Of a DNA stretch of 64,000 nt, positions 17,757 through 44,691 are shown in pieces. The DNA is from Anaerolineae bacterium (GTDB taxonomy: Bacteria > Chloroflexota > Anaerolineae > JAADDB01). Location: positions 10,021 to 74,020 of the forward strand of contig WFWT01000001.1 in assembly GCA_015490995.1 (NCBI GenBank), given 5' to 3'. Under the pieces are notes generated by a model that worked only from the letters and a program-made list of their open reading frames with translations, was not told the DNA's origin and ran no database searches. How positions within the stretch are numbered: the first letter of the stretch is position 1; the number at the start of each line of letters is the position of its first letter. The position numbers were made by a program, and so were the translations under genes.

Positions 17757-17772
17757 ACTTGAGGTAATGTGC

Positions 17773-17806
17773 GTCGGCCCGGCGGTTTCGAGACCGCCGG
17801 GCCGAC
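17773..17806 (+). terminator. Intra-operon hairpin/attenuator after the SBP gene
   Basis: 14-bp perfect inverted repeat GTCGGCCCGGCGGT ... ACCGCCGGGCCGAC with a 6-nt loop, 17 nt after the SBP stop. Confidence 0.4.
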
Positions 17807-17894
17807 CTCTTCAACACGCGCTAGAGGGATAAGGGCCACGACAGCCCTCGCAAATTACAGGTAAGTGTTTAAGGTACGTGTAAGGAGAAACAGC

Positions 17895-18869
17895 ATGGCG
17901 CAACAAACGGTAGTGGCGGAACGGGCTGCCCTCCAGGTGGAACCCAGTTGGCGCGCCCGGTTGCGCGCTATCACTACCCCTGCCTTTTTCATCGGCCCAG
18001 CATTACTCCTGATTCTCATCTTTTTCTTCATTCCGGTGATTCTCACCATTCTCATCAGCCTGACAGACATGAGCGTGGCCACCATCAGCGACATTAACTT
18101 CGTTGGGCTGAAGAACTATGAACGCATCTGGCGCAGTCGCACCACAATGAAAATTCTGAAGAATACGTTCATTTACGTGGGGTTCACCCTCACTCTCTTC
18201 AACGTCGGTATGGCCCTGATCCTTTCCCTGATCACCACACACATTCCCGAACGGGTGGGCACCACGTTCCGTACGTTCTGGCTTCTCCCGCGCATTACCC
18301 CTTCGGTGATCTATGCCATTATGTGGACGTGGTTCACCGCTGACGCGCCGTACGGTATTGTCAATCAGTTTCTGTCCCCCTTTGGCATCACGCCCAAAAA
18401 CTGGCTTAACGCACAACCCTGGCTGGTAGTCATCGCGGCCAACGGGTTTGTGGGCACCTCCTTTGGGATGATCATCTTCACATCGGCCATTCACGCTATC
18501 CCGGTGGATTACTTGCGAGCCGCGCTGGTGGACGGCGCGAGTACCCTACAACGCATCCGGTACGTGATCCTTCCTATGATTCGCTGGCCTATTCTCTTTG
18601 TGGTCACGTACCAGACCCTCTCTCTGCTGGCATCGTTCGAGTACATCTTGCTCTTGACCGATGGTGGTCCAGGATTTTATACCACTGAAGTGTGGAGCCT
18701 ATACGCGTATCACCGCGCCCTGTCCAACTACTTTGGGAACGTCCAGTTCGGCTTTGGTGCGGCTCTGGCCGCTATCCTCGTTATTATCGGTGTAATCGCG
18801 TCTGTCGTTTACTTACGCGTTTTCCGCTTCAGTGAAATGGTCGCAGAACCTAAGATCGAGGTGCTATGA
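17895..18869 (+). CDS. ABC transporter permease (MalF/UgpA-like)
   Basis: 6-TM permease with an EAA-like loop; ATG at 17895 with an AAGGAGAAAC SD. Confidence 0.85.
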   Translation: MAQQTVVAERAALQVEPSWRARLRAITTPAFFIGPALLLILIFFFIPVILTILISLTDMSVATISDINFVGLKNYERIWRSRTTMKILKNTFIYVGFTLTLFNVGMALILSLITTHIPERVGTTFRTFWLLPRITPSVIYAIMWTWFTADAPYGIVNQFLSPFGITPKNWLNAQPWLVVIAANGFVGTSFGMIIFTSAIHAIPVDYLRAALVDGASTLQRIRYVILPMIRWPILFVVTYQTLSLLASFEYILLLTDGGPGFYTTEVWSLYAYHRALSNYFGNVQFGFGAALAAILVIIGVIASVVYLRVFRFSEMVAEPKIEVL

Positions 18870-19711
18870 TGGCTGAGCACGCAGGTAGCCGCATTGGCCA
18901 GATCATTCTCGGGATTATTGTGTTGCTCCTGTCCATGCCCTTACTGGTAATGTACATCTGGCTGGTGGAATCCGCCTTCTCCCAAATCACGTACGGCATC
19001 ATCCCGCAAGGATTCACGTTGAGCAACTGGCGATTCCTATGGGAAGGCTTTACGAACATGCCATCCATCTGGCGTATCACCTGGAACACGCTAGTCTTTG
19101 CGGTGGTAGTAGCCACCATTGAGGTGTTCATCGCTTCCCTTACCGGGTACGCGCTCTCGCGCATGAAGTTCCCCGGCCGGCGCATGTTCTTATCATTGAC
19201 CCTGGTCCTGCACGCCTTTCCTGCTGTCACGTTGCTCATCGCCATCTTTTACGTGTTGTTGGTCCTCGGCCTATACGACACGCTTGTGGGCGTTATCATG
19301 GTCAAGGCAGCCCTGGAACTGCCGTTGGGCGTGTGGATCATGAAGGGGTTCTTCGACAACATCTCCTGGGACATGGAGATGTCCGCCCTTATTGATGGGT
19401 GTTCCCGGTTGCGCACGTGGTGGGAAATCCTCTTGCCCAACATTCGACCGGGCATTGCTGCCCTGTCTATCTTTGCTTTCCTGTCAGGGTGGAGTGAGTT
19501 CCTCTTGCCCTACATTTACACGTCCAGTTTCGAGAATTTTACCCTCTCCGTTCTCCTTCGCCGGCTGGTGGGTGACTTCCGGTTCGTGGACTACGGACTG
19601 CTAACGGCCACGGGGCTGTATTACATGATGCCCGTGTTGTTGTTCTTTATCTTCACCCAGGAGTACCTGTTGAACATCTACGCGGGTGGCACTAAAGGAA
19701 CCACCGTCTAA
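18866..19711 (+). CDS. ABC transporter permease (MalG/UgpE-like)
   Basis: 6-TM permease overlapping the upstream stop by 4 nt. Confidence 0.85.
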   Translation: MMAEHAGSRIGQIILGIIVLLLSMPLLVMYIWLVESAFSQITYGIIPQGFTLSNWRFLWEGFTNMPSIWRITWNTLVFAVVVATIEVFIASLTGYALSRMKFPGRRMFLSLTLVLHAFPAVTLLIAIFYVLLVLGLYDTLVGVIMVKAALELPLGVWIMKGFFDNISWDMEMSALIDGCSRLRTWWEILLPNIRPGIAALSIFAFLSGWSEFLLPYIYTSSFENFTLSVLLRRLVGDFRFVDYGLLTATGLYYMMPVLLFFIFTQEYLLNIYAGGTKGTTV

Positions 19712-19831
19712 ACTCAGCCCCGGACAAAGGTGACCAGGAGGAAGGGAGGGGAAATGTAACACGAGGTGAGTCCCCTATCCTGGAGAAATGTTCCTGAATA
19801 TCTGGACAAGCTTAAAAAGCGGGGGAGCACG

Positions 19832-20920
19832 ATGGAAGTCCGATTAGAACGTTTAAGCAAACACTTTGGCAGCGTAGTGGCAGTGGACGACCTTACCCTC
19901 CACATCAAGAGCGGGGAGTTCGTAGCCCTGCTGGGACCCAGTGGCTGCGGCAAGACAACCACTCTTCTCATGCTGGCCGGTATCTACCGCCCTACCGGCG
20001 GTGAAATCTGGTTTGGCGACCGGTTGGTTAACGATGTCCTACCCAAGGACCGAAATATCGGCATGGTGTTCCAGTCGTACGCACTGTATCCCCACATGAC
20101 GGTGTTCGAAAACATCACCTTCCCCCTGAAGCTAAAGAAAGTGCCCAAGGAGGTCATGCGCGAAAAAGCCCAGCGCGTGGCTGACATGATGCAGATAGGT
20201 CACCTCATGGACCGCCGTCCAGCCCAACTGTCAGGAGGTCAGCAACAACGCGTCGCCTTAGCACGTGCCCTGGTAAAAGAACCGGATATTCTGCTCTTCG
20301 ATGAGCCTCTCAGCAACCTTGATGCCAAGTTACGCCTCACCATGCGGGGCGAGATCAAAAGGCTACAACATGATTTGGACATCACCTCTATCTACGTGAC
20401 CCACGATCAGGTCGAAGCCATGACCATGGCTGACCGCATCGCGGTCTTACGAGATGGTCGTCTGCAAGCCTTTGCTACTCCGGACGAACTATACAACCGG
20501 CCGCGCAATCTCTTTGTGGCCGGCTTCATCGGCAGTCCCCCCATGAACTTCCTGAATGCCCGTCTGACCGCACAGAACGGTCAAGCCATTGTGGAGGGGA
20601 ACGGCTTCCGTATTACTTTGCCTGAAGATCTGGGACGCAAAGCTCTCTCACAGGCACAAAGGGAAGAGGTGATCTATGGCATCCGGCCGGAACATATCCG
20701 CCTCGACCCTGACGGAGAAGTGGAAGCGGAGATCTACGTCATTGAGCCCCTCGGACGGGAAGATCTGCTCGATTGTCGGCTTCCCGATGGGACTTTGTTG
20801 GGCGTTCTAGTACCCTCCGGACACGGCGTGAAGATAGGTGAAAAAGTGCGCTTGAAGTTCCAGTTGGACCACAGCCAACTCTTTGACCCACATACGGAAC
20901 AATCCTTGTTGTGGAATTGA
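19832..20920 (+). CDS. ABC transporter ATP-binding protein (MalK/UgpC-type, with C-terminal TOBE domain)
   Basis: Walker A GPSGCGKTT, LSGGQQQRVALARAL signature, Walker B ILLFDEPLSNLD, and a C-terminal MalK-like regulatory domain. Confidence 0.9.
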   Translation: MEVRLERLSKHFGSVVAVDDLTLHIKSGEFVALLGPSGCGKTTTLLMLAGIYRPTGGEIWFGDRLVNDVLPKDRNIGMVFQSYALYPHMTVFENITFPLKLKKVPKEVMREKAQRVADMMQIGHLMDRRPAQLSGGQQQRVALARALVKEPDILLFDEPLSNLDAKLRLTMRGEIKRLQHDLDITSIYVTHDQVEAMTMADRIAVLRDGRLQAFATPDELYNRPRNLFVAGFIGSPPMNFLNARLTAQNGQAIVEGNGFRITLPEDLGRKALSQAQREEVIYGIRPEHIRLDPDGEVEAEIYVIEPLGREDLLDCRLPDGTLLGVLVPSGHGVKIGEKVRLKFQLDHSQLFDPHTEQSLLWN

Positions 20921-21026
20921 TGACATGCCTACACTGACATAAGGGGATTATCCGACCATACCGAAGGATCGTACAATTCCGTTCGCGGTAGGAGGCACTC
21001 TCACACACGTAACGTGCAACGACGAT

Positions 21027-21064
21027 GAGCCGTCTCCAATAGGGTGAGACGGCTCTAATTTTAT
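21027..21064 (+). terminator. Rho-independent terminator of the sugar ABC operon
   Basis: 10-bp perfect stem GAGCCGTCTC/GAGACGGCTC, 9-nt loop, followed by TAATTTT. Confidence 0.6.
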
Positions 21065-21118
21065 GCCAACCAACTTTCCTAAAACCTGGATGGAAAGGGG
21101 GGGACACAGCAACATATC

Positions 21119-22582
21119 ATGCACGCGACACAGACGTTAACCCAACAACGTGCTCTGGCAGAACGGTACACACCCATTATTTTTGCCGATGAGGCCGAAC
21201 CCTTCCAGCCAGAACTGGTAGGGTATACAATCTTCCGGCAGAGTGGTCCGTCCCTCTCCTTCCCCCGTACTATTGACGTCCATCCCCCGGTGTGGCGGGT
21301 GATCGAATATGCCATCTGGTGGGATTGGGATATCGGTCACCTCTACGAGTTGGAACACGTGTGGGTATACATTGACGAAGAGGAACGCGTTATCAAAGTA
21401 GAGGCATCCTGGCACGGGACGTATCACGAGATGCGAGTTGACGGGAGTATTCCCCTGGAAGGCACGCACCCCATTGTCTACGCTGAACCTGGCAAACACG
21501 CAATGGCCCCCTCGCCGGAGTGGCATACCCGTCGTGCATCTCAGATCATCCTTGCCTGTACCCGATTGGCCGGTGCTGGTGGAGTGTGGGAAAACGTGCT
21601 TTACGGTAGGCCCGAAGTGAAATCCCCACGTGTCGATCGGTTGGTGCGCACGTATCTACGGCGCAAAGCCTTTGTACCCACGTTCCGCTTTACACGCCAA
21701 ATTGCCGTGAAACCGGATATTCTCGTCCCCTGGCGGGAAATGGAACGCTTAATCCCAGCCCGCCTGCGGGTTTGGGTTCACCACCTGGAGCGCGCTTTGC
21801 CCGAGGAAGAACTTACCATGTTGGCTATCGCACACCGAGGAGCGTCGGCCCACGCACCAGAAAACACCCCTCTTGCCATCCGCTTGGCCGCCAGCATGGG
21901 AGCCGACATGGTGGAAATGGACGTCCGGGTCACAGCTGACGGGGTGCCCATCGTCATCCACGACCACGACCTCAAACGTTTGGCAGGCCGTGGTATCGAC
22001 GTTCACGAATTGACGCTGGAAGAGATTCAGGAAGTTCCGTTGCCGGAAAACCAACACATACCTACCTTGCACGAAGCCCTTTCCCTGTGTCGCGAGCTGG
22101 CCATCGGCGCCTACCTGGAATTGAAGGAGCCGGGCACAGCGATTCCGGCCGCGTTATTGGTCCGTCAGACGGGCATGACCTTTCACACGATTTTTAGTTC
22201 TTTTCACGCCGAGCTGTTGCGGGAAGTGAAACGTGTTCTGCCCCACGCCAGCACAGCTATTCTCTTCCGAGATATTGACGTTGATCCATTAGATCTGGCT
22301 GCGCAGGCGGCGGCGGATTACGTCCATCCTGCTTGGGAAAAAGCGGCGCCCCGTCCCGATTTCCTCCTTTCGCGGGCCTGGGTGGAACGAGTCCACGCCC
22401 AGAATCTGGGCATCATCACTTGGCATGAGGAACGCCCTAACGTAGTACGTGCCCTCCGTCACCTGGGCGTGGACGGCATTTGCAGTGACCGGCCAGATGT
22501 GCTTATGTTGGCCAAAAGTGGTCCCGCACTGCCAGGCAACACCCGATGGCACAACGATGGGTACACGTTGACGGGCAATTGA
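21119..22582 (+). CDS. Two-domain protein: N-terminal 230-aa domain of unknown function fused to a glycerophosphodiester phosphodiesterase (GDPD) domain
   Basis: C-terminal half carries GDPD motifs (IAHRGAS..PENT, EMDVRVTADGVPIVIHD, ELK); the N-terminal half has no family I can recognise. Confidence 0.75.
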   Translation: MHATQTLTQQRALAERYTPIIFADEAEPFQPELVGYTIFRQSGPSLSFPRTIDVHPPVWRVIEYAIWWDWDIGHLYELEHVWVYIDEEERVIKVEASWHGTYHEMRVDGSIPLEGTHPIVYAEPGKHAMAPSPEWHTRRASQIILACTRLAGAGGVWENVLYGRPEVKSPRVDRLVRTYLRRKAFVPTFRFTRQIAVKPDILVPWREMERLIPARLRVWVHHLERALPEEELTMLAIAHRGASAHAPENTPLAIRLAASMGADMVEMDVRVTADGVPIVIHDHDLKRLAGRGIDVHELTLEEIQEVPLPENQHIPTLHEALSLCRELAIGAYLELKEPGTAIPAALLVRQTGMTFHTIFSSFHAELLREVKRVLPHASTAILFRDIDVDPLDLAAQAAADYVHPAWEKAAPRPDFLLSRAWVERVHAQNLGIITWHEERPNVVRALRHLGVDGICSDRPDVLMLAKSGPALPGNTRWHNDGYTLTGN

Positions 22583-23867: not shown

Positions 23868-25826
23868 ATGGACAATAAACGCCGGTATGGTATTGGGCTC
23901 CTGAGCATTACCGGGCTCGCTTTTGGCCTGCGTTGGGCTTATCCCACGCTCGTGGAGTTCGGATTTGATGAGGCCCACGTCTCCCGCCTTGCCCTGTTTA
24001 TCGCCCATTATGGCTATCGCCCGGTGTTCGGGGTGGAATCGTCCATTGGAGTACGGCAGTTTCCCCTGTTCCTGTACCTAGCTTCCCTGCCTCTCCGCCT
24101 ATGGCCCCACCCGTTAGCTATTGTATTTTTCATCGCCGGTCTGAACGCGTTGGCCGTACCCCTCACGTACATGCTGACGCGACGTTACTGGGGGCCACGC
24201 GCAGCACTTGTAGCCGCGCTGTTATTTGCCGTGAACGGGTGGGCTGTCCTTTATGGTCGCAAGATATGGGTGCAGAACATTACCTTGATCACCGTTCTTT
24301 TCGGCATGGTCTTTTTCCGGGCCTTTGTGGACGACCGTCCTTGGGCTTGGCTTGTGGTCTGGCCAGCAGTGGCGGCGTTAATCGGGCTCCACCTCGAGGG
24401 CCTTGCCTTTGTGGTGATCGTACTCCTGGCAATGGTCCTGCGAGGACGACACGTGCCTTGGCGATGGGCCATCACGGGCATTGGCTTGTCCGCTTTAGCG
24501 TTAAGCCCCTACCTCATAGCTGACGCACGCGCGGGGTGGCGTAACGTGCACAATTTCTGGCACTACATCGGACAAAGCCCAGGCCTTGTGACGCTGGACG
24601 CCTGGCAGTTTGCCCTTCGGCTGGCCAGTGGACAGGCACTCACGGTGCTAGCCGGCCAAAACACGGCACAACTCACATCTCAACTCCCACCGTTCTGGCT
24701 GTTGGATACCGGCATGGGGATCTTGTCGGCCCTTGGTCTCCTCTACGCGCTGGCGCGTGGCCTAAAAGATCGAACCTGGGGAGGACGCCGTTACGTGGCG
24801 TTGGTGTTATGGTTTGTTATTCCTGTACTTTTACAAACGTATCACACCCGCCCCGTGTACCCACGTTATTTCACGATACTCTACCCGGTGCCCTTCATGC
24901 TTGTTGGAGCTCTGGTAGCAGAGGGCCTCCCTGCGCTCAGAAACTGGTTAAGCGATCGTGTGGTAGGCTGGCTCCGATGGTGTGTTGGCGGTTGGCTGGG
25001 CGCGTGGGCCGTGTGGCAATTCGTTCTTTTGCTGGCCATCTGGCGTTTTGTGGACTCTTACCCAACACCGGGCGGCTTCGGAACTCCGCTGAAATATCCT
25101 TGGTCGGCTGCCGAGGTGGCCAAAGCTACAGCCGGAGAGGGGGAGATTATCGTGATGGCCCCTGCCGGTGAACTGGAGTGGAGTGTCCCCCGCCAGATGT
25201 TTGACGCGCTGCTCTTTACCCACGAACGGCGCTTTGTCAACGGCCAGGAGACAATTATCTTGCCCAAGGGCTCTGTCGTCTATATCGTCGGACCTCTTGC
25301 GCCTCAGGACGACGCTATGGCTGCAACGTTAACCTTCCTAGAGACTTACGGTAACGTCCAACGTATCACCACAATAGAGGATCCCAACGACCAGCGGTTT
25401 ATCGTGCTGCGCCGTACCGATGGGCCGCAGTCTATGCCCCCCACGTTCACGTTGTGGACGCCTCCGGTAAGGTTGGCCAACGGCGTGCGTTTCTTTGCGT
25501 TTGCCATACGCCCTGTCGACCACGCTTGGGAAGTGTGGCTGGGATGGGACATCGAACGTGTGTCCGAGGAAATGTACCGCATTTATGTCCACGGGTTGAA
25601 CGCTCAAGGCAATATCGTTGCCCTTGGAGACATCAGTGGTCTATTGCCTTATTATCGCCGAGAGGGGGATCGCCTGTTCAGCCGAGTGGTGCTTCCCACA
25701 TCCCCTAATATGGTCAGGATTCGCGTGGGCATGTACATCTACCCTACACAACAACGGATTCCCATTGTGTCACCGCCTGCTTGGGCAGGGAAGGATGGGG
25801 TCACGTTAAGCTTAGCACCCCAGTAG
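23868..25826 (+). CDS. GT-C-fold glycosyltransferase (ArnT/PMT family-39-like) membrane protein
   Basis: 652 aa with roughly 12 N-terminal TM helices including the characteristic first-loop region, plus a C-terminal soluble domain. Confidence 0.6.
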   Translation: MDNKRRYGIGLLSITGLAFGLRWAYPTLVEFGFDEAHVSRLALFIAHYGYRPVFGVESSIGVRQFPLFLYLASLPLRLWPHPLAIVFFIAGLNALAVPLTYMLTRRYWGPRAALVAALLFAVNGWAVLYGRKIWVQNITLITVLFGMVFFRAFVDDRPWAWLVVWPAVAALIGLHLEGLAFVVIVLLAMVLRGRHVPWRWAITGIGLSALALSPYLIADARAGWRNVHNFWHYIGQSPGLVTLDAWQFALRLASGQALTVLAGQNTAQLTSQLPPFWLLDTGMGILSALGLLYALARGLKDRTWGGRRYVALVLWFVIPVLLQTYHTRPVYPRYFTILYPVPFMLVGALVAEGLPALRNWLSDRVVGWLRWCVGGWLGAWAVWQFVLLLAIWRFVDSYPTPGGFGTPLKYPWSAAEVAKATAGEGEIIVMAPAGELEWSVPRQMFDALLFTHERRFVNGQETIILPKGSVVYIVGPLAPQDDAMAATLTFLETYGNVQRITTIEDPNDQRFIVLRRTDGPQSMPPTFTLWTPPVRLANGVRFFAFAIRPVDHAWEVWLGWDIERVSEEMYRIYVHGLNAQGNIVALGDISGLLPYYRREGDRLFSRVVLPTSPNMVRIRVGMYIYPTQQRIPIVSPPAWAGKDGVTLSLAPQ

Positions 25827-26042: not shown

Positions 26043-26636
26043 TTAGGAACCCGAGGGGCTAGGAGGTAACCATGATGTATGAGCGTTGAGACGGGTAGCG
26101 ATGTCCGCGTGAAGCTGTGGGATGACGGTAGCGTACAGGAGTTCCCCGGCCTCTGTGGACTCAGCACCTAAGGTAACTGCAGCTTCAACATCCGCGACAG
26201 GGCCGTGGAAAAACACGAGGCCTTTACCCCCCAGCCCATCGGCCAAACGCACTTCCAGAAGCTGGACCTCCGCTCCTTTCCGACCGGCATCCGCAGCCCG
26301 GATGGCCGCCGCTACCGTGCGTGTTTCGACAATGCCAAGCGCTTCCAACACAGGCGGCCAGCGAGCCCCCTGTTCAACCGCCGCGACTACATCCTCGTGT
26401 ACTCCGGGTAAGTATACCTCACCTACCAGAGCAGCCGCGCCGGCCCGGCGACCGGCTACCAGAGCTTCCTCAACTTCTGCCACCGCGCCGGCCACTAATA
26501 CCAACAGCTTTCCCGGCTGGACAGTGCCCACGTGTACGTGGGCTACCGCCGCTCGTTTCACCATCGCATCGGCTGCTTCAATGCCCACAGCAATGCTGTC
26601 AAACTCCAGCAACGCCAAGGCCGGGTAGGTAGTCAC
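26043..26636 (-). CDS. BMC shell protein, tandem BMC-domain trimer type (BMC-T, PduT-like)
   Basis: Two consecutive PF00936-like BMC domains ([26 protein letters not shown] ... and ALGIVETRTVAAAIRAADAGRKGAEV ...), collinear with PduT. The pore Cys of PduT is replaced (GTVQPGK); GTG start with an AGGAGGGAAGG SD. Confidence 0.8.
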   Translation of the reverse strand: MTTYPALALLEFDSIAVGIEAADAMVKRAAVAHVHVGTVQPGKLLVLVAGAVAEVEEALVAGRRAGAAALVGEVYLPGVHEDVVAAVEQGARWPPVLEALGIVETRTVAAAIRAADAGRKGAEVQLLEVRLADGLGGKGLVFFHGPVADVEAAVTLGAESTEAGELLYATVIPQLHADIATRLNAHTSWLPPSPSGS

Positions 26637-26651
26637 CCTTCCCTCCTGGGC

Positions 26652-28157
26652 TTATACAATACGGAAGTGGTCAACCAGGGTGCAGCGGCGTGGCCGGGCA
26701 AAGGTGCGTGCGTTGGTCAACCCTTCGCCGGTAGGACTGGCGATGCTGAAGGAGGTATATCCTTCCCCGCCATAGCCTAACCCGGCCAAGTTAGGCCCGT
26801 TCTTCACAAAGATCGAGGTGTTTATCTCTCGGGCCATCCGGCTTAGATTATCCAGATTTCGGGACCACATCACAGCCGTATGGCCAAAACCATGTTCGGC
26901 CTCCACGGCCAGCCTGATCGCTTCATCCACATCCCGCACTCGCACAATGGGCAATACCGGCATCAATTGTTCTGTCCACACCAGTGGATGCTCTACAGGC
27001 ACCTCAATGATAATCAGGCGGACACGGTCATCTGCAGGGATGCCCAACTCCTTAAGGAGGGCTGCGGCCGATTTCCCCACCCACGATTTACGAATGACCC
27101 CCGGCCGACGTGGTCCACGCATTTCCTCAAAAATGATCTTCTCTAAACTGCGGACGCGATAGGATGGTAATTCTACGGCGCCGTGAGCTGTCATAGCCTG
27201 TTTCAGGGCATCTGCGACTTGATCTACGACGAACACCTCCTTTTCATCGGTGCATACGATGTTATTGTCAAAGGATGCCCCCATTACTATGCCCTGACCG
27301 GCCTTTTCAATGTCGGCCGTCTCATCTACTACCACGGGGGGATTTCCAGGACCGGCACAGATAGCCCGCTTACCCGAGCGCATGGCCTCTCGCACCACCC
27401 CCGGCCCACCGGTAACCAGCAATAACCGCACACCGGGATGACGCATAAGTGCCTGTGCCGTCTCTATGGTGGGGTCCGCGCACGCGGTGATCAAGTCCGG
27501 CGGTCCCCCTGCCGCTCGGATAGCTCGGTTCAGCAACTGAATCTGGAAGGTGTTCACCTGTTTGGCACCGGGATGTACATTGAATACCACGGCGTTGCCC
27601 GCGCTAATAATGCTGATTGCGTTGTTGATGACCGTAGCCGTGGGGTTGGTGATAGGTGTAATCGCGGCAACCACACCGTACGGAGCCCACTCTGTAAGGG
27701 TCAACCCGTCATCACCACTCCATGCTACCGGCTCTAAAATTTCTGGTCCCGGGGTTTTGGTAGCGACTAGCTCGTTCTTTTTGACCTTATCCTCCACTCG
27801 ACCGAGACCCGTTTCCTCATGGGCCATGCGTGCCAGGAGCTCAGCGTTTTGCAGAGAGACGTCCCGAATGGCCTGAATGATGCGCTTTCGCGCGGCAAGG
27901 CTCAAACGGTTTAGCTTCTGATAAGCCACCCGTGCCGCGCGCACGGCGCTATCCACATCTGGATAGATGCCATCCTCGCCGGAGACCACAGGAGGAGCGA
28001 TTTCTCGGCCAACCCGGCCTACATGTGAAAGGTGAGGAGGTGGCCCTTCCTCCTTCTGCACCTGAGAAGCTCCCGTCACCGTTCGGCCTTCACGCTCCTT
28101 TAAAGCGGTCAGAACACGCTGTGTGATCGCCTCGATAGTACGTTCATCCAAAGGCAT
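26652..28157 (-). CDS. CoA-acylating aldehyde dehydrogenase (PduP/EutE family) with N-terminal encapsulation peptide
   Basis: Catalytic region VCTDEKEV and overall PduP/EutE-like architecture. N-terminal amphipathic helix ERTIEAITQRVLTALKE followed by a Pro/Gly-rich linker, as in BMC-targeted aldehyde dehydrogenases. Confidence 0.88.
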   Translation of the reverse strand: MPLDERTIEAITQRVLTALKEREGRTVTGASQVQKEEGPPPHLSHVGRVGREIAPPVVSGEDGIYPDVDSAVRAARVAYQKLNRLSLAARKRIIQAIRDVSLQNAELLARMAHEETGLGRVEDKVKKNELVATKTPGPEILEPVAWSGDDGLTLTEWAPYGVVAAITPITNPTATVINNAISIISAGNAVVFNVHPGAKQVNTFQIQLLNRAIRAAGGPPDLITACADPTIETAQALMRHPGVRLLLVTGGPGVVREAMRSGKRAICAGPGNPPVVVDETADIEKAGQGIVMGASFDNNIVCTDEKEVFVVDQVADALKQAMTAHGAVELPSYRVRSLEKIIFEEMRGPRRPGVIRKSWVGKSAAALLKELGIPADDRVRLIIIEVPVEHPLVWTEQLMPVLPIVRVRDVDEAIRLAVEAEHGFGHTAVMWSRNLDNLSRMAREINTSIFVKNGPNLAGLGYGGEGYTSFSIASPTGEGLTNARTFARPRRCTLVDHFRIV

Positions 28158-28160
28158 GGG

Positions 28161-28457
28161 TTACTCCGCTCCTTTGCGGTATTTCACCTCACCGTTCACT
28201 TCCCACTCGTCAATGATAGCCATGATCACCGCGTCACAGGGTCGCTTGTCCGTCAGGACGGTCTGGCGGGCTGAGGAGCCCGTGGCATACAACACATATT
28301 CACCAACACCTGCTCCCACTGCGTCCACGGCCACCACATATCCCTCTTTCTCCTGGCCGTTGACGTCTACCTGGCGCAGGAGAAGAAATTTCAACCCCTC
28401 CATCTTTGGGTCCTTCCGGGTTGCGACAACAGTACCCACCACTTTGCCTATGAGCAT
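28161..28457 (-). CDS. BMC vertex protein (BMC-P; EutN/PduN/CcmL family)
   Basis: 98-aa protein [15 protein letters not shown]...LKFLLL matching the EutN/CcmL fold signature. ATG at 28457 with a GTGAGG SD; an alternative GTG at 28469 overlaps the upstream stop. Confidence 0.8.
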
Positions 28458-28465
28458 GGTTCGCC

Positions 28466-29308
28466 TCACTTGGGCTTTAGCTCTATGTCGACGGATGGGG
28501 ATTCGGACGTGGGCGGTTCAACCTGGGCTTTGGGTTGACGTGGTACCCCGGGGCGCGTTGCCACTCGGGGACGCCGGGCGCGCTTGGGTGGAGGCGCCGT
28601 GCGCGCGATAAACGCGCGCAACCGTTCACCTGCCCGGTCCGTCAGCACCGGCCCATGGCCAAAACACGCTACCTGTACATTCTTCAGCCGCCCTAGCTTA
28701 CGCAGTGAATCGCGCACAATCTCAGGCTGAGGGGTGAACACAGCCGGTGGAAGCGCCAGTTTTCCTCTCCGATGAGAAATTACATCCCCCACAAAGAGTA
28801 CTCCTGTCTCCTTGTGATAAAGGGACATATGGCCTGGCGTGTGACCGGGCGTGTGGATGACCTGTAGACCGTTGTCCAGTACCTCGGTATCCACCACCAA
28901 CAGGTCGGGCTGCAAGCGGGGTAGCCGTAACACGGTGCGACTGAGCAAGAAGTAAAGGGGGGTGATCAACACGCCCAGGGGATGTCGGAAATTAGGCCAC
29001 CGATGCCATTTCCCTTTAAAAAACATCGCCTCAATGGCATGCACCACTACGCGCGCGCCTGTCGCCTCTCGGATCACCCGCAACCCACCGGCATGATCGG
29101 TGTCGGCATGGGTGATGAGAATCTCCTTTATGTCTTCTGGGTTAAACCCTGCTTCCTTGATTGCGTTTAGGATCTTCTTACCATGCCATGGAAGGCCGGT
29201 GTCAATGAGGGCGAGATGACCATCCCATCGCCACAAGTAGACGTTTACCGAACTACCGATATCATCAATGTGCCACACATTTTCGGCTATCTCCTTCACG
29301 CGGCTCAC
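28466..29308 (-). CDS. MBL-fold metallo-hydrolase embedded in the BMC operon
   Basis: Beta-lactamase-fold motifs: the metal-binding motif reads [11 protein letters not shown] (H-x-D-x-D-H variant of HxHxDH), plus downstream HTPGHTPGH and a GD..H ligand region. Pro/Arg/Lys-rich C-terminal tail of about 45 aa. Confidence 0.8.
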
Positions 29309-29335
29309 CTCCTCTTAAGTTCGGTTATTCTCATT

Positions 29336-29632
29336 TCACGTGTTCTCCACTGCTTCTTGACGACCCAGGGGGAGCACACGGTCCACGTTCGGGTGCGGCC
29401 GCGGAATGACGTGGACAGCAACGACTTCACCCACACGCTCGGCGTTACGTGCACCTGCTTCCACCGCTGCCTTTACCGCCGCCACGTCGCCCCGCACAAT
29501 AGCGGTGACATACCCGCCCCCGGTTTTCTCGTATCCTACCAGTTCAACCTTTGCTGCCTTGACCATAGCATCCGCGGCTTCCACCACGGCGGCAAAACTA
29601 CGGCATTCGATCATACCCAACGCTTCGGCCAT
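29336..29632 (-). CDS. BMC hexamer shell protein (BMC-H, PduA/CcmK-like)
   Basis: MAEALGMIE...[42 protein letters not shown]...VHVIPRPH is a near-canonical BMC-H sequence; ATG at 29632 with an AAGGAGGG SD. Confidence 0.92.
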
Positions 29633-29752
29633 TGTGCCCTCCTTGCCCATTTGAAGTAAAGTTAAAAATGACGGTTCACTCTTTCACAGCCTCATGTTTC
29701 GGGCTAAGAGAACGTCCCATAGGACGAACGGGAGCTCTCCCAATAATCGTGA

Positions 29753-30385
29753 CTATCCGCCGCTCAGGGGACGACCGGTAATGCTTTCGATGGCTTCCAC
29801 GGCTGCCCCATAGCCGGCCATGATATCCCGCTCCTCACCACCCAGGTAAACACGACCAAACGCTCCAAAGGCCCTCACCTCCAAGATGTTGATGTGGGCC
29901 CGCTTCTCGGCCTCGTTGGCAGCAAGGGCTGCATACCCCGCGGGCTCAACTTCTAAGACATAAAGGGTTTGCCCGGGAATAAGCATGTGCCCATGACGCA
30001 TCCGGTTGATCAGCTGGGCTTGAAGTCCGTGTACGTTCCGAATAATTTGGCTGGAAAGAATGCGAGGCTTCAGCCGGTCCTCCTCTTGGAGGCCCAGAGC
30101 CTCCAAAATAGCCACGCCCGCCGCGCGCACATCCGCTTGGGATGGCCCGTGCACTTCTAACAGGCCATACCGTCGTTCCACAATTTGCATGCCCGGGAAC
30201 ACCCCCGTGGCTTTGATGGCAATATCCGTCACCCGGTTGATCTCAATCCCCGGTGAGATCTCCACCCACAAGGAGGCATCGCCGGCCAACGGGAGGAATC
30301 CCTGGGCTACCGTGCCCAGAAAGGCGGCAAATTGGGGTTGCAAGCTATCAATGAACACAAACGACCGGAGTTGCACGTCACTCAT
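29753..30385 (-). CDS. BMC shell protein, double-stacking tandem-domain type (BMC-T, CcmP/CsoS1D-like)
   Basis: 210 aa with two BMC-like halves (...[20 protein letters not shown]... and ...[18 protein letters not shown]...GGEERD...), strongly reminiscent of carboxysomal CcmP. Overlaps the deoC stop by 8 nt. Confidence 0.72.
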
Positions 30386-31292
30386 AGAGGGCCTCCTTTT
30401 GATGGGAAGGGTGTGCTACCTGGGCGGACGCAGAACCGGACTCGGTAACAATTTTCACACCCGCACTGGCACCGATACGTGTGGCGCCGGCGGCGATCAT
30501 TTGCCAGGCAACCTCTGCAGTGCGAATACCACCAGCAGCCTTTACCCCTACTTCTCCACCGACCACGCGACGCATCAGCGCGACATCCTCTACTGTAGCG
30601 CCGCCTGGACCGAACCCGGTGGAGGTTTTTACATAATCGGCTCCTGCAGCTTTCGCCAGCACACAGGCCTCCACTTTCTCTTCATCGGTCAGCAAGGCAG
30701 CTTCGATAATAACCTTCACGATCGCTCCCTGCCGATGGGCCACCTGGACTACAGCAGCGATGTCCTCTGCCACTGCCGCGTACTGCTTGGACTTAAGGCG
30801 GCCGATGTTGATGACCATGTCGATCTCACGTGCGCCATGCGCTATACTCCGCTCGGTCTCATATGCTTTTACCTCGGTCAACGTCGCCCCCAGGGGAAAG
30901 CCCACCACGGTACACACGGCAACATCGCTCCCGGCCAGCAGCTCTCGGCACAGGGCCACCCAGGTGGGATTAACACACACCGCAGCAAAACGGTATTGTT
31001 TAGCTTCCGCACACAAACGACGAACTTGCTCCTCAGTAGCATCCGGTTTGAGCAGAGTGTGGTCAATGTACCGAGCTAAATCGGAAGCCACATTGCCTAC
31101 GCCCAATCGGGCGCTTAACCGATCGGCCCCGGCATTCAACATGGCGCGGGCCGCTTCCGGGCTGTGAACAACGCAATTGCCATCACAGGAGGTACACACT
31201 TCGCAGGACGCGCGACCGTACCGACGCAGCACTTCGTCGGTAATGAGATCGATCAGTTGATCCAAAGTGTACTCCCCAATACGTTCAACCAT
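30378..31292 (-). CDS. deoC: Deoxyribose-phosphate aldolase (DERA) with 80-aa N-terminal extension (encapsulation-peptide-like helix plus CxxCxxCx3C motif)
   Basis: DERA core from [15 protein letters not shown] through the catalytic Lys regions ([14 protein letters not shown]). The N-terminal [18 protein letters not shown] helix and [13 protein letters not shown] motif precede the catalytic domain. Confidence 0.88.
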
Positions 31293-32013
31293 CTTTCCCT
31301 CGAGACCGCATGTAGCGTCGTTCGATTTGCATGATCTTATCCACCCGTCGCCGGTGTCGTCCGCCGCCGTACGGCGTCTCCAACCAGGTTTTCACAATCT
31401 GTTTGGCCAGGTTCGGGCCGATGAGGCCCGCGCCCAGGGTTAGCACGTTCGCGTGGTTGTGTTCACGGCTATTCACCGCGGTAGCTATATCATAGCACAT
31501 CGCAGCACGAACGCCCGGAACTTTGTTACACACCATACAGGAGCCAATCCCCGCGCCGTCGATCATGATGCCATACGTCACTTTACCCTGGGCCACCAGT
31601 TGTGCCACCGCGTACGCGAAGTCCGGATAATCGACGCTTTCCGTACTGTGAGTGCCCACGTCGACACAATCCCACCCCAGCTCTCGCAGATAAGGCTTGA
31701 GGGTTTCTTTCAACGCGTATCCCCCATGATCGGCCCCAATGGCAATCACACGTGCATCCCGAGCCGTGACGTTGGGCACCAGCGTATCTTCCACCAGTTG
31801 AATACCACGCTCGCGTGCCCGCTCGCGGGCCAGAGGGGTAACAATAGCACCAGAGGGGACATGAACCACATCACCTTCCGAGAATCGCTCCACAAAAGCC
31901 GCGTCGATAAGGCGACGGTCCTCAGCGGTATTGTCTGTCACAGCCTGCTCAGCCACGAGGCGACGCACGATCTCTTCCACCAGACGACGGACATCCTCGC
32001 GAGAGGGATTCAC
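31285..32013 (-). CDS. rpiB: Ribose-5-phosphate isomerase B (RpiB/LacAB family) with 90-aa N-terminal extension carrying an encapsulation-peptide-like helix
   Basis: RpiB core begins [14 protein letters not shown] and includes the active-site Cys region [11 protein letters not shown]-terminal [17 protein letters not shown] amphipathic helix; start overlaps the lepB stop (ATGA). Confidence 0.85.
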
Positions 32014-32645
32014 GGCTCCTTCTCTCCAGATGACGGATGTTCAAAGGAGGATGGGTACGTGGCGTGGGGCACGGGACCGAAGCGGTCAAGCGGCCAGAAG
32101 CGCCACACGGCCTTGCCCACAATTAAATTTTGTTTCAACACGCCCCAGCTGTGGGAATCGTTGGAGTTGTTACGATTGTCTCCCAACACGTACACCTCGT
32201 CAGGCCCCACGGTGACCGGCGCGGCCGTGTATGTCGGAGACGCGAGAATATACGGCTCTGGAAGGGGCTGCCCGTTGATGTACACCCGCCCATCCTGGAT
32301 GGCCACCGTTTCCCCGGGCAAACCGATCACGCGCTTGATCAGCGTGCGTCGAGGGTTTAGAGGATATCGGAAGACAATGATATCCCCGCGCTGGGGATGA
32401 CCTTGCCAATACGCCATACGGTATACAAACACGTACTCCCCATCACTCAAGGTTGGCTCCATGCTGGTACCGGAAATACGAAAGTTGATGAACACAGCCC
32501 GCAACGTGAAAAACAAGATGAGGGTAATTAGAAAAACCTCCAACAATTGACGCAGCGCGCGGGCTAACTCCGAGGCTTCGATCTCATCCCCGGCCAGTGT
32601 GATGTACTCTTCCCTCACCTCTGAGATGCGCTCCTGCACGGTCAT
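32010..32645 (-). CDS. lepB: Signal peptidase I
   Basis: GTSMEPTL (catalytic Ser box), RGDIIVF, and GDNRNNSNDSH boxes; ATG at 32645 immediately after the gltX stop. Confidence 0.85.
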   Translation of the reverse strand: MTVQERISEVREEYITLAGDEIEASELARALRQLLEVFLITLILFFTLRAVFINFRISGTSMEPTLSDGEYVFVYRMAYWQGHPQRGDIIVFRYPLNPRRTLIKRVIGLPGETVAIQDGRVYINGQPLPEPYILASPTYTAAPVTVGPDEVYVLGDNRNNSNDSHSWGVLKQNLIVGKAVWRFWPLDRFGPVPHATYPSSFEHPSSGEKEP

Positions 32646-32649
32646 CGGT

Positions 32650-34170
32650 TCACACCGGCGTCGTTGCAATTAAGCGCTCGAGGCGGGCAATGGCCTCGTC
32701 CAAACGGCGCAACGTGGTTTCCCGTCCCAGGGCCAGGATCATGTCAAACAACGGAGGCGTGACTTTCTTTCCCGAGATAGCCACTCGGATAGGGCTGAAC
32801 ATCTGGCCAGCTTTCAAGCCCATGGCAGCTGCTTTGTCACGCAGCGCTTGTTCCAAGGCCTCCGCTTCAAAGGGCACGGTAGCGATAATCTCGCGCGCCG
32901 CACGCAACGCGGCCAAAGTCTCGGTCGCCGAAAGCTTCTTCGCGATCAACATCTCCGGATCATACGTTAAGGACTCGGCATACAAAAAGTCAAGCAGCGC
33001 CGTGGCCTCGGTAAGACGTTTAATCCGTTCCTGCACCGCTGGCAAAAGGCGACGCAACCGCTCGTCCTGACGCAACGTTTGCGCTGGAATTCCCAAATCA
33101 TGACTGAGGAAGGGAATCAGCCGCTCCAACAGCTCCTCTGTAGGGAGAGCACGAATGTAGACGCCGTTCAACCATTCCAGTTTGCTGTAAGGGGCAGCGG
33201 CCGGTTTCGGGTTGATATCCTTAATGTCAAAGTGCCGAACCGCCTCTTCCAGGGTGAATACCTCGGCTTCATCCGGAGGGGTCCACCCAATACGCGCCAA
33301 CCAGTTCACTATCGCTTCCGGCAAATATCCTTGTTCGCGAAAATCGCGCACCAAGATGGGCAAACCACTCTGCGCCGCGCGCCGTTTACTCATCTTGCCC
33401 TTGCCAGAAGGGTCAAGAATTACCGGCAAATGACAGTGAACGGGCATAGGCCACCCGAACGCGTCGTACAAAAGCTTGTGGCGGGGCAAGCTGGGAATCC
33501 ATTCCTCCCCACGGAGCACATGTGTGATTCGCATGTGATGATCGTCGACCACTACGGCCAAGTGATAAGTGGGAAACCCATCAGACTTCAACAACACAAA
33601 GTCATCCAGCGTATGCGCAGCTACCACTACCTCTCCCCGCAAAAGATCTTGAGCCACAACTTGGCCCTCCAGAGGGCTTTTAAAACGGATGACATAAGGC
33701 CGCCCTTCTGCCTCACGACGGGCTACCTCAGCAGGAGAGAGACGACGACAGCGGCGATCGTAGCGCGGCGGTTCACCACGAGCCTGCTGCTCCCGCCGCA
33801 TTTGGTCTAACTCCTCCGGTGTACAGAAACACTTGTACGCGTGCCCCTGCGCCACCAGCCAGTGAGCCCATTCCTGATACAGCTCCAACCGCTCGGATTG
33901 AACATAAGGCCCATAAGGACCACCTACATCAGGCCCTTCATCCCAGGCAAGCCCTAACCACCGCAACCCGTCCATGATGTCCTGTACCGAATCGGGCACG
34001 TAGCGCTTCCTGTCCGTATCTTCTATGCGAAGAACGAAAACCCCACCACAGTGACGCGCGTACAGCCAGTCATAAAGGGCGGTTCGAGCCCCACCTATGT
34101 GCAGGTAGCCTGTCGGGCTAGGTGCAAAACGCACGCGCACGGTTGTGGATATCGTTCCCTCGGATGCCAT
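32650..34170 (-). CDS. gltX: Glutamate--tRNA ligase
   Basis: Class-I HIGH region (PSPTGYLHIGGARTAL) and KMSKR motif; start at 34170 or 34188 (uncertain). Confidence 0.9.
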   Translation of the reverse strand: MASEGTISTTVRVRFAPSPTGYLHIGGARTALYDWLYARHCGGVFVLRIEDTDRKRYVPDSVQDIMDGLRWLGLAWDEGPDVGGPYGPYVQSERLELYQEWAHWLVAQGHAYKCFCTPEELDQMRREQQARGEPPRYDRRCRRLSPAEVARREAEGRPYVIRFKSPLEGQVVAQDLLRGEVVVAAHTLDDFVLLKSDGFPTYHLAVVVDDHHMRITHVLRGEEWIPSLPRHKLLYDAFGWPMPVHCHLPVILDPSGKGKMSKRRAAQSGLPILVRDFREQGYLPEAIVNWLARIGWTPPDEAEVFTLEEAVRHFDIKDINPKPAAAPYSKLEWLNGVYIRALPTEELLERLIPFLSHDLGIPAQTLRQDERLRRLLPAVQERIKRLTEATALLDFLYAESLTYDPEMLIAKKLSATETLAALRAAREIIATVPFEAEALEQALRDKAAAMGLKAGQMFSPIRVAISGKKVTPPLFDMILALGRETTLRRLDEAIARLERLIATTPV

Positions 34171-34375
34171 GGCCCGTTTTCCTCGCAAAGTTTCTAAGGA
34201 ATTTCCGAACGCCCTCGAATAGTGATGCCAAGATACCCCAAAGGCAGCCCAGCAAGGTCCGCCCCACTACCGGATACATGTCCAACCACCACATTGCGAT
34301 TGTACCCGGAACAGAACGGATGAGCAATTGCGCTCACCCAAGAATGCCAAACCCACACCAACATTGATACCCCCT

Positions 34376-41922: not shown

Positions 41923-42741
41923 TCAAGGATCACGCAACACGCGTGCCAAACGGTGAGGAAAATCGGTAAAAATACCCGTCACGCCCCACGCGAGCAGGCG
42001 ACGCATGTCCGACTCTTCGTTCACTACCCAAACATTGACCCCACGACCGGCCGCGCGCAGGCGTTGAATGCGCTCTCGTGTGGCCAAGGAGAGGCGCAAA
42101 TTATATGTAGGAAATTCCAACGTATCCCAATCCACCTCTTGCGCTTCACCATACCCTATCAACGCGGCCACCTCCAGGCGAGGATTAGCCTCCCGGACCT
42201 CCCGCAGCCACCGATGGACAAAGGAAGAGATCACCACACACTCCTCCGCCCGTTCCTCGGCAATGAGGGTCAGCACCTTTTCCACCACCGGAAAATCTTC
42301 CATGGGAGGGGGTAAAGCTTTCAGTTCCAAGTTAATGCGCCAGTGATGGGCCTGGGTAAAACGCAACGCCTCTCGAACAGTAGGGATGGATTCCCCCCTG
42401 TACTCGCGTATGTCCTCGGGTGAAACGTGCCCTGCCTGGATCTCACCGAAGGGGTCCTCTTCCACAAACCATGACCCGGCATCCAGGGTATCCAACTCCG
42501 CTTTGGTGAAGGTGGTGACCGTCCAAGGTGCTCGGTGGGGAAAACGCGCGGCCACATTGGTCGTGCGGGCGAGGGAATCGTCGTGCATGAGCACCAGCTC
42601 ACCATCCGCGGTGACGGAGATGTCCACCTCCCACATGTCAGCCCCGGCGGCAAGGGCCTTGCGGGCTGCTGCCAGCGTGTTCTCTGGAGCCAAGCTGCGT
42701 GCCCCGCGATGCGCGATGTTCAGGACACGGCAACGGGTCAT
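41923..42741 (-). CDS. ugpQ: Glycerophosphodiester phosphodiesterase
   Basis: GDPD motifs (NIAHRGARSLAPENT, EVDISVTADGELVLMHD); the ATG overlaps the ugpE stop (ATGA). Confidence 0.85.
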   Translation of the reverse strand: MTRCRVLNIAHRGARSLAPENTLAAARKALAAGADMWEVDISVTADGELVLMHDDSLARTTNVAARFPHRAPWTVTTFTKAELDTLDAGSWFVEEDPFGEIQAGHVSPEDIREYRGESIPTVREALRFTQAHHWRINLELKALPPPMEDFPVVEKVLTLIAEERAEECVVISSFVHRWLREVREANPRLEVAALIGYGEAQEVDWDTLEFPTYNLRLSLATRERIQRLRAAGRGVNVWVVNEESDMRRLLAWGVTGIFTDFPHRLARVLRDP

Positions 42742-44677: not shown

Positions 44678-44691
44678 TGCGGACATCGCGA

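Follow-up and report, generated by a model that had tools for sequence, protein, structure and literature searches.

A putative SPU3-type microcompartment operon with one BMC-P gene and an embedded MBL-fold hydrolase gene in an uncultured Chloroflexota

Sugar-phosphate-utilising (SPU) bacterial microcompartments (BMCs) are among the most widespread bacterial organelles, are thought to recycle deoxyribose derived from DNA, and have yet to be studied as native organelles. The class was named in 2014 (Axen, PMC4207490), and the 2021 catalogue holds more than 280 SPU loci from 26 phyla, divided into seven subtypes (Sutter, PMC8217296). The only biochemically studied SPU system is the SPU6 of Chloroflexi bacterium GWB2_54_36 (PMC11585597); the SPU6 deoxyribose-phosphate aldolase (DERA) has been purified and is active on deoxyribose-5-phosphate (Dwyer, Sutter & Kerfeld 2024, PMC11585597). 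In addition, a 2025 preprint reports self-assembly of the shell and recruitment of cargo dependent on encapsulation peptides (EPs) in SPU-type archaeal compartments of the Hodarchaeales (PMC12747264). Here, we describe an eight-gene putative SPU operon at positions 26043-32013 of a 64,000-nucleotide stretch of DNA, hereafter the window, from contig WFWT01000001.1 of an Anaerolineae bacterium (assembly GCA_015490995.1), and compare it with these systems and with its relatives in Chloroflexota.

Judged by gene content, gene order, catalytic and pore residues, N-terminal extensions and conservation in relatives, the locus is real and, to all appearances, a complete SPU3 operon of an uncultured member of Chloroflexota; that it encodes an SPU metabolosome operating by the mechanism set out below is about 75% probable in our view. 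A sequence-only reading of the same DNA had already described eight tightly packed, co-directional minus-strand genes, including one BMC-H, one BMC-P, a PduT-like BMC-T and a CcmP-like BMC-T, and all of these were recovered, as were the matches to PF00936, PF03319 and the DeoC, RpiB/LacAB and aldehyde dehydrogenase families that it had proposed as a check. Seven of its gene identities stand, while the eighth gene, left unnamed, encodes a metallo-beta-lactamase (MBL)-fold hydrolase and is the most unusual component of the operon. Its assignment to SPU from the pairing of DERA and RpiB was right and can be narrowed to SPU3 by order, scores and residues, and its chemistry of acetaldehyde sequestration is that of the published model. 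Its statement that no substrate, structure or physiology had been demonstrated for the class is outdated by the DERA activity and complex (PMC11585597) and by the shell assembly (PMC12747264), and the organelle is not a new one, as the class is broadly catalogued and the gene order is that of catalogued SPU3 loci.

Gene content and assignment to SPU3

The eight open reading frames, all co-directional on the minus strand, are intact and give strong domain matches in Pfam and NCBIfam (Table 1), and the genes for BMC-H, BMC-P and the PduT-like tandem-BMC protein (Ts) cluster within 6 kb, as is required of a bacterial microcompartment locus. Neighbouring genes share 8, 8 and 4 nt in three overlaps and are otherwise separated by 3-36 nt, with the exception of about 120 nt ahead of BMC-H; the overlap between the genes of the RpiB-like protein (RPI) and DERA is one of those of 8 nt, and the stop of MBL is 8 nt away from the start of BMC-P. 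For BMC-H (AAGGAGG about 8 nt ahead of its ATG) and MBL, the shorter starts are preferred on account of Shine-Dalgarno sequences, the public gene call also gives a BMC-H of 98 aa, and the BMC-P start is favoured by the start of the Pfam model and by the public gene call. Since the identical locus is present in three independent assemblies and its features are shared by relatives, they are not assembly artefacts. The stretch ahead of BMC-H is the sole sizeable intergenic gap in the operon and contains a weak hairpin that could tune BMC-H expression relative to the upstream genes. A scan for promoters and terminators across 25.5-35 kb returned counts no higher than in shuffled sequence, and no RNA family element was found with Rfam at E<=0.1 across 25-35.5 kb.

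The enzymes are those of the SPU class, namely a DERA with an N-terminal extension and the catalytic D/K/K residues, an acylating aldehyde dehydrogenase (AldDH) with an EP, and, beside DERA, an RpiB-type protein with the characteristic Asp. For the assignment to a subtype, 80 related loci were fetched from species-representative genomes by means of the window DERA and annotated with the window's own proteins. Two gene orders dominate among them, RPI-DERA-P-ALDH-H-Tdp-P-P (SPU6, Anaerolineae) and RPI-DERA-Tdp-H-P-ALDH-Ts-P-P, where Tdp denotes the CcmP-like BMC-T(dp); the second is SPU3 according to the catalogue trees, an example being Ardenticatenia Nak82 with DDG58_14825 (Tdp), _14835 (P) and _14845 (Ts). 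The window order, RPI-DERA-Tdp-H-P-ALDH-Ts, occurs in full in ten SPU3-order loci (L005, L006, L014, L028, L033, L038, L049, L052, L061 and L071), and L009 and L072 have the same order with not both trailing BMC-P genes seen. Median scores of the window proteins are much higher against SPU3-order than against SPU6 loci: 581 vs 143 bits for AldDH, 322 vs 218 for Tdp, 157 vs 109 for BMC-H and 133 vs 92 for BMC-P. SPU3 has been described as having N-terminal EPs on AldDH and DERA, a CcmP-like Tdp and a Ts that lacks both PduS and the pore Cys (PMC8217296), and the window has the order, the CcmP-like Tdp, the Ts without PduS or pore Cys and the N-terminal AldDH EP, and no phosphotransacylase (PTAC). 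The catalogue furthermore includes a class 'Tdp_mustardGreen_ccmPlike-chloroflexi' in SPU3, and places the BMC-P of catalogued loci at this point in the order in the green 'viridian2' clade (Sutter 2021).

Compared with SPU3 loci such as that of Nak82, the window thus has the same enzymes (PF02502, DERA PF01791, AldDH), the same order, N-terminal EPs and no PTAC, but it differs in its BMC-P complement, a single gene without the trailing P-P pair as against the green/grey/orange triplet, in the MBL gene between BMC-H and BMC-P, and in its fusion to gltX-lepB. With the SPU6 of GWB2_54_36, from the same phylum, it shares a DERA extension of about 70 aa with the same D/K/K spacing, adjacent RPI and DERA genes, and an RPI with an N-terminal EP and the Cys-to-Asp exchange, whereas that system has a C-terminal EP on an AldDH of another (EUT3-like) branch, a 'blue' clade Tdp, no Ts, a GntR regulator, an EutQ-like protein and the other gene order. 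SPU6 membership was accordingly rejected, as the window AldDH lacks a C-terminal EP and scores low against SPU6 AldDHs, the order differs and Ts is present. The HO microcompartment of Haliangium ochraceum, a structural model shell, has a closely related Tdp (HO-5816), a PduT-like Ts without Fe-S and an N-terminal AldDH EP, and a related function has been suggested for it by the catalogue (PMC8217296). It was considered and rejected, since the main locus of HO lacks DERA and RPI, and HO has three BMC-T proteins and a triplet of BMC-P. The beta-carboxysome was likewise rejected: only the Tdp resembles a carboxysome part, reaching the CcmP equivalog cutoff and matching CcmP end to end, gate residues included, whereas RuBisCO, CcmK, CcmM, CcmN and carbonic anhydrase are absent, the enzymes are DERA, AldDH and RPI, and the context is that of a catabolic metabolosome. 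This likeness probably stems from a common requirement for letting phosphorylated sugars or large cofactors through. Finally, the Hodarchaeales SPU-type compartments share the DERA and AldDH core, EP loading and the proposed substrate, DNA-derived deoxyribose-5-phosphate, but they have a DERA fused to a flavoprotein, a PTAC and several BMC-P proteins, one of which carries a DNA-binding K/R tail (PMC12747264); in the window, a K/R/P-rich tail is instead found on the MBL-fold protein.

Table 1. Position of the operon genes, of elements within and between them, and of neighbouring features in the window.
Feature	Position	Strand	Details
RpiB-like (RPI) gene	31285..32013	-	242 aa; PF02502 2.9e-54, aa 90-227; NF004051 172 bits
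RPI amphipathic helix	31948-32001		aa ~5-22
RPI mini-domain	~31789-31914	-	aa ~34-75
RPI Asp152	31558-31560		at catalytic Cys position
DERA gene	30378..31292	-	304 aa; TIGR00126 296 bits (cutoff 117), aa 72-282
DERA helix	31218-31265		aa 10-25
DERA Cys cluster	31173-31205	-	C30-x2-C33-x2-C36-x3-C40
CcmP-like BMC-T(dp) (Tdp) gene	29753..30385	-	210 aa; NF053796 CcmP 342.5 bits (cutoff 340)
Gap between Tdp and BMC-H	29651-29752	-	~120 nt to real BMC-H start
Weak hairpin in gap	29715-29733		
BMC-H gene	29336..29632	-	98 aa from ATG 29632 (mechanical ORF reaches 29650); PF00936 2.4e-31
MBL-fold hydrolase gene	28466..29299	-	277 aa from GTG 29299; PF00753 9.6e-34; PF19583 ODP 42.5 bits
BMC-P gene	28161..28457	-	98 aa from ATG 28457; PF03319 8.6e-31
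CoA-acylating AldDH gene (PduP/EutE family)	26652..28157	-	501 aa; PRK15398 659 bits (cutoff 403)
AldDH EP-like helix	28095-28145		aa ~5-21
PduT-like tandem-BMC (Ts) gene	26043..26636	-	197 aa; PF00936 x2; TIGR02526 112 bits, under equivalog cutoff
lepB (signal peptidase I)	32010-32669	-	upstream context, adjoins RPI gene
gltX (glutamyl-tRNA synthetase)	32650-34188	-	upstream context
PFOR	2097-5675	+	
Ugp-like ABC transporter cluster with GDPD gene	16257-22582	+	~4 kb below BMC operon
652-aa membrane protein gene	23868-25826		convergent, abuts operon
Ugp-like ABC transporter cluster with GDPD gene	41923-46191	-	~10 kb above BMC operon
Aldehyde:ferredoxin oxidoreductase, tungsten-type	47351-49246	-	AFOR_N/AFOR_C

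Shell proteins, putatively encapsulated enzymes and proposed mechanism

The Tdp, by type a double-stacking pseudohexamer, matches CcmP in the PDB (4HT5/5LSR) with 287 bits, aligning over its whole length with 4HT5, and HO-5816 with 242 bits, and the gating pair E70-R71 is kept ('IVERRYG' vs 'FIERLYG'). It lies barely over the NCBIfam cutoff for 'beta-carboxysome protein CcmP', and automatic annotation would therefore name a carboxysome protein in a locus that is not a carboxysome. The Ts, also of a pseudohexameric type, matches PduT (3N79/3PAC) with about 105-108 bits and has Gln40 at the position of the [4Fe-4S] pore cysteine ('vQPGK' vs 'vCPGK'/'iCPGK' in 3NWG/3PAC), while BMC-H carries the standard KAAK and PRPH interface (edge) motifs. 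The single BMC-P is the orthologue of P1 of the SPU3-order loci, with 60-67% identity to P1 and 33-44% to P2 and P3. No further shell genes were found in the six frames of the window with phmmer --max and the window BMC-H, BMC-P, Tdp and Ts as queries, so that the minimal four-gene shell of the sequence-only reading holds for the locus and for the window; a satellite BMC-P could still lie elsewhere in the genome.

All three core enzymes have N-terminal extensions that are absent from their housekeeping homologues, of about 60 aa in AldDH, 70 aa in DERA and 89 aa in RPI, and each extension opens with an amphipathic helix, as the sequence-only reading had noted, and continues as a linker. In AldDH, the helix has the sequence ERTIEAITQRVLTALKE and is followed by a linker of about 40 aa; the catalytic Cys302 is intact and there is no C-terminal extension. 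Residues 5-501 of AldDH align to positions 3-465 of the PRK15398 model, the N-terminal positions of which we take to cover the encapsulation-peptide end of PduP/EutE. The helix calls are based on the AlphaFold2 (AF2) prediction for DERA, on conservation and on this N-terminal alignment to the PduP/EutE model, as a hydrophobic-moment scan (18-mer) did not discriminate EP helices and was dominated by Arg-rich segments. Against Pfam, the N-terminal extensions and the MBL tail gave sub-threshold matches only.

In DERA, the catalytic residues D158, K222 and K251 are intact (alignment to PDB 8qps, 282 bits), and their spacing of 64/29 is identical to that of D165/K229/K258 in the assayed SPU6 DERA. 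AF2, run with an alignment of 30 relatives, predicts the helix with a confidence score (pLDDT) of about 76 and the next 40 residues with low confidence, which matches the published description of SPU DERAs, and the helix is conserved among relatives with L13 and E20 invariant. Directly after the helix and ahead of an 'AGADRLS' motif, there is a cluster of four cysteines. In the 30 relatives (63-86% identity), C30, C36 and C40 never vary, nor do G38 and P45, and C33 is kept in at least 90%. When cysteines were counted in the 32 residues ahead of the conserved 'AGAxR[ILV]' motif of N-extended DERAs from many phyla, 45 of 63 had at least four and 50 of 63 at least three, and four further proteins had a Cys2His2 version, C-S-P-H-H-x-x-C. 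The spacing differs between subtypes, being C-x3-C-x4-C-x3-C in SPU6. Zinc, iron-sulfur and the extension cysteines go unmentioned in the main text of PMC11585597, according to a text search. Judged by this pattern, the cluster is probably a metal site, either Zn or Fe-S, and the motif could explain the insolubility of the full-length enzyme when expressed in Escherichia coli.

In the mechanism that we propose, 2-deoxyribose-5-phosphate from the breakdown of nucleosides and DNA would enter a shell made up of BMC-H hexamers, a single type of BMC-P pentamer, the Cys-less PduT-like trimer and the gated CcmP-like double trimer. Inside, DERA would cleave it into glyceraldehyde-3-phosphate, which would exit to glycolysis, and acetaldehyde, which the co-encapsulated acylating AldDH would trap as acetyl-CoA with formation of NADH. 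Since PTAC, alcohol dehydrogenase and PduS are all lacking, CoA, acetyl-CoA and NAD(H) must cross the shell, for which the large gated pore in the CcmP-like trimer would be the most plausible passage. RPI would act as a non-isomerase partner or scaffold of DERA with a canonical encapsulation helix and help to package the core, and the MBL-fold hydrolase would be a lineage-specific accessory, probably cytosolic as it has no encapsulation helix. For the activity of DERA, the inactivity of RPI, the complex of the two and the loading by way of EPs we draw on the literature on homologues, and we infer the entry of the substrate, the traffic of cofactors and assembly with a single pentamer type.

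Chloroflexota relatives and the embedded MBL-fold hydrolase

Relatives of the locus within its clade were found through the MBL and DERA proteins. One of them, L091 (DERA 84% identical to that of the window), is arranged gltX-lepB-RPI-DERA-Tdp-H-MBL-P-ALDH-Ts-thiolase-SDR, and L084 (MBL 70% identical) has the same arrangement. L090 (DERA 71%) reads lepB-RPI-DERA-83aa-Tdp-H-PPase-MBL-P-ALDH-Ts-nitroreductase-thiolase, where PPase stands for a family-I inorganic pyrophosphatase (ppa), and L093 (67%) is arranged likewise; L092 (67%) follows as lepB-RPI-DERA-86aa-Tdp-H-PPase-MBL until the contig ends. L086 consists of Tdp-H-MBL-P-ALDH-Ts, with no RPI and no DERA nearby, and L089 (DERA 68%) has PPase and two other genes, but no MBL, at the junction between BMC-H and BMC-P (the H|P junction). 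Two further lineages are shell-less, L087/L088 (JGI 3300023507 and 3300009408) with gltX-lepB-DERA-MBL-thiolase-SDR and L094 (GCA_026645955.1) with lepB-RPI-DERA-86aa-PPase-MBL, and neither has shell or AldDH genes within 10 kb. The best relatives of the window DERA belong to Caldilineaceae, Ardenticatenaceae and Promineifilaceae.

Among the relatives with shell genes seen in full, all six (L084, L086, L089, L090, L091 and L093) have one BMC-P. Their BMC-P proteins are 89-90% and their DERAs 67-84% identical, and a single-P layout kept in six diverged relatives implies purifying selection. As the SPU3 order with trailing P-P spans several phyla, the simplest history would be that the ancestor of the Chloroflexota clade lost P2-P3 and acquired an insertion at the H|P junction, and that some branches later lost the shell. 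Several genes vary around this core. The PPase gene stands beside MBL at the H|P junction in L090, L092 and L093, with PPase and DUF4230 there instead in L089; a conserved hypothetical protein of 83-86 aa with no Pfam match follows DERA in L089, L090, L092, L093 and L094 and has no counterpart in the window. After Ts or MBL, L084, L087, L090, L091 and L093 have a thiolase with or without an SDR or nitroreductase gene, together with an M29 peptidase-like gene, where in the window the convergent membrane protein gene abuts the operon. These thiolase genes could provide a cytosolic sink for acetyl-CoA and NADH in the relatives; thiolase is absent from the 64-kb window.

The MBL-fold hydrolase has the metal motif T-H67-A-D69-T-D71-H72, that is HxDxDH instead of the canonical HxHxDH, aligned with 'HHHPDH' of TTHA1429 and 'HEHFDH' of AIM-1 and invariant in the clade and in most Chloroflexota relatives. 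The AF2 model has a pLDDT of 91.6, and sequence and fold searches of the PDB returned generic matches only, lactonases among them, with structural neighbours at a template modelling (TM) score of about 0.6 that include TTHA1429, HARLDQ/B3 lactamases and the CoA-thioesterase PqsE. A basic, proline-rich C-terminal tail ('VAPPxKRR...VPRQPKA') is common to the close clade (61-100% identity), shell-less contexts included. The family was found on contigs L084, L085, L086, L087, L088 and L090-L094, of which L084/L085 and L087/L088 are near-identical pairs. It thus occurs at the H|P junction or beside DERA in eight of nine distinct clade loci, L089 being the one without it, and is tied to DERA even in the shell-less lineages L087/L088 and L094. 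None of the 80 fetched SPU loci, which belong to other lineages, has a homologue at this junction.

A more ambitious interpretation is that the Chloroflexota clade has remodelled SPU3 through a single pentamer type, an MBL-fold hydrolase (plus PPase in sister loci) as a pathway step and a Cys4 metal centre in DERA. The hydrolase would then carry out thioester or phosphodiester hydrolysis, replacing PTAC or supplying substrate, and the Zn or Fe-S centre would govern core assembly or redox coupling; taken as a whole, we regard this as doubtful.

An integral role of the hydrolase in the pathway, considered by itself, is unlikely. It would act either as a thioesterase resembling glyoxalase II or PqsE that takes the place of PTAC, freeing CoA from acetyl-CoA or from the product of the thiolase and SDR, or as a phosphodiesterase that makes sugar phosphate from nucleotides. 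Such a role would suit a gene that is translationally coupled between BMC-H and BMC-P, in a family that keeps the same junction or stays beside DERA across the clade, two shell-less lineages included; PqsE is among the best fold matches, PTAC is absent from the locus, several relatives have thiolase with or without SDR after the operon, and the K/R-rich tail recalls the DNA-binding tails on BMC-P of Hodarchaeales (PMC12747264). However, the protein has no encapsulation helix and its tail occurs in shell-less contexts too, the fold and sequence matches are generic, and the family is missing from all 80 SPU loci of other lineages and from the clade member L089. Because gltX, lepB and ppa are likewise interleaved with the operon in this clade, the gene may be a hitch-hiker, and a passenger or peripheral role is more likely than a direct role in the pathway.

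RPI, genomic surroundings and the reading as a whole

Cys-to-Asp at the catalytic position has been reported for all SPU RPIs (Dwyer, Sutter & Kerfeld 2024, PMC11585597), and an SPU6 homologue had negligible ribose-5-phosphate isomerase activity while forming a stable, roughly 1:1 complex with DERA (PMC11585597). The window RPI, with its RpiB domain at aa 90-232, follows this pattern: in the alignment to RpiB of Clostridium thermocellum (3HE8, 154 bits), Asp152 stands at the position of the catalytic Cys ('GIMIDGAG' vs 'GIVICGTG' in RpiB) and His185 is kept, and Asp was found at this position in 50 of 50 SPU RPIs taken from the fetched loci. Since the catalytic Cys is replaced and the tested homologue is nearly inactive, the isomerisation step of the sequence-only reading is doubtful.

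It is nevertheless conceivable, if improbable, that RPI is a working isomerase which uses Asp as the base and acts on ribose-5-phosphate or another sugar phosphate, in a broader processing of pentose phosphates. The RpiB fold and His185 are conserved, the Asp is strictly kept instead of drifting, which suggests that it still functions, and Mycobacterium tuberculosis RpiB has Glu at this site, RPIs being promiscuous (PMC11585597). Apart from the negligible activity of the SPU6 homologue, this is countered by the lack of a transketolase or other enzyme in the locus that would link ribulose-5-phosphate or ribose-5-phosphate to DERA or AldDH, and by the absence of RPI from SPU5 and its fusion to DERA in some SPU3 loci (PMC11585597, PMC8217296), which fit a structural role. 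On balance, our analysis favours RPI as a packaging partner of DERA and makes a working isomerase unlikely; that their genes overlap by 8 nt is in keeping with co-assembly. Between the EP helix and the RpiB domain, RPI also has a conserved mini-domain with a sub-threshold match to an E3_binding/PSBD-like Pfam family (E 0.018), which is common to the RPIs of SPU3-order loci and Acidobacteriota, while SPU6 RPIs have a disordered linker there. The mini-domain may be a protein-protein docking element.

Upstream, the stop of lepB overlaps the RPI start by 4 nt, and the co-directional gltX-lepB pair is joined without spacing to the operon, a layout in which gltX, lepB and the BMC operon would probably share a transcript. 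The lepB or gltX-lepB junction is kept in all eight distinct relatives with RPI or DERA in the locus (L084, L087, L089-L094), which suggests constitutive co-transcription and no dedicated regulator. Elsewhere in the window, the neighbouring genes include those for NAD biosynthesis (nadABC, niaR), TCA-cycle genes and a chemotaxis cluster. The aldehyde:ferredoxin oxidoreductase (AFOR) and pyruvate:ferredoxin oxidoreductase (PFOR) genes point to an anaerobic metabolism linked to ferredoxin and to another route that acetaldehyde could take, and the two Ugp-like transporter clusters, both of which include a gene for a glycerophosphodiester phosphodiesterase (GDPD), suggest that detritus containing phosphodiesters is scavenged.

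With regard to the substrate, the compartment might mainly serve another source of acetaldehyde, or DERA might condense acetaldehyde and glyceraldehyde-3-phosphate into deoxyribose-5-phosphate, both of which we consider very improbable. DERA is reversible according to general enzymology, the window has no deo salvage genes and carries the AFOR gene, and some SPU3 and SPU6 genomes have ethanolamine 'EUT modules' that would feed acetaldehyde to the same shell (PMC8217296). However, DERA alone among the enzymes of the locus generates an aldehyde, and it is kept throughout SPU, neither EutBC nor another aldehyde-forming signature enzyme is present in the window, and the acylating AldDH draws the reaction toward cleavage.

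Several observations weigh against a functional SPU3 metabolosome fed by deoxyribose-5-phosphate. Every published SPU locus is credited in the literature with three or more BMC-P paralogues, from the grey, orange and green/blue/purple clades (PMC11585597), and the locus and the 64-kb window have one. The window contains no deoA, deoB or deoD, nucleoside transporter, PTAC or acetate kinase, and neither the supply of substrate nor the fate of acetyl-CoA is thus visible in it. No regulator is adjacent, and fusion to housekeeping genes is atypical for a catabolic organelle. The DERAs of the shell-less L087/L088 and L094 keep the N-terminal amphipathic helix, the Cys4 cluster being lost in L087 and kept in L094; the extension may have a role beyond encapsulation, or the shell genes may have moved elsewhere in these lineages. 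Shell formation, encapsulation and induction in the organism itself are, moreover, predictions from the genes. Even so, it is hard to believe that the locus is a decaying or shell-incompetent SPU3 remnant with its enzymes free in the cytosol, as the missing P2-P3 pair, the foreign genes at the H|P junction and the relatives that lost all shell genes and kept DERA (and RPI in L094) might suggest, given that none of the eight reading frames is broken, that their pore, interface and catalytic residues are conserved, that the single-P architecture is kept in six independent relatives, and that one BMC-P suffices in many functional types of BMC, PDU, EUT and RMM among them.

With the class itself already known, what is new here is modest and consists of a recurrent variant with one BMC-P, an embedded HxDxDH MBL gene, the fusion to housekeeping genes and the conserved Cys4 cluster of DERA. 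The locus represents one of the smallest complete SPU gene sets, with four shell genes and three core enzymes, and if assembly with a single pentamer type holds true, the BMC-P triplet would be dispensable and the locus a compact chassis for engineering. Further, the MBL family that is tied to DERA with or without shells offers a lead on how cofactors are recycled and substrate is supplied in these systems.

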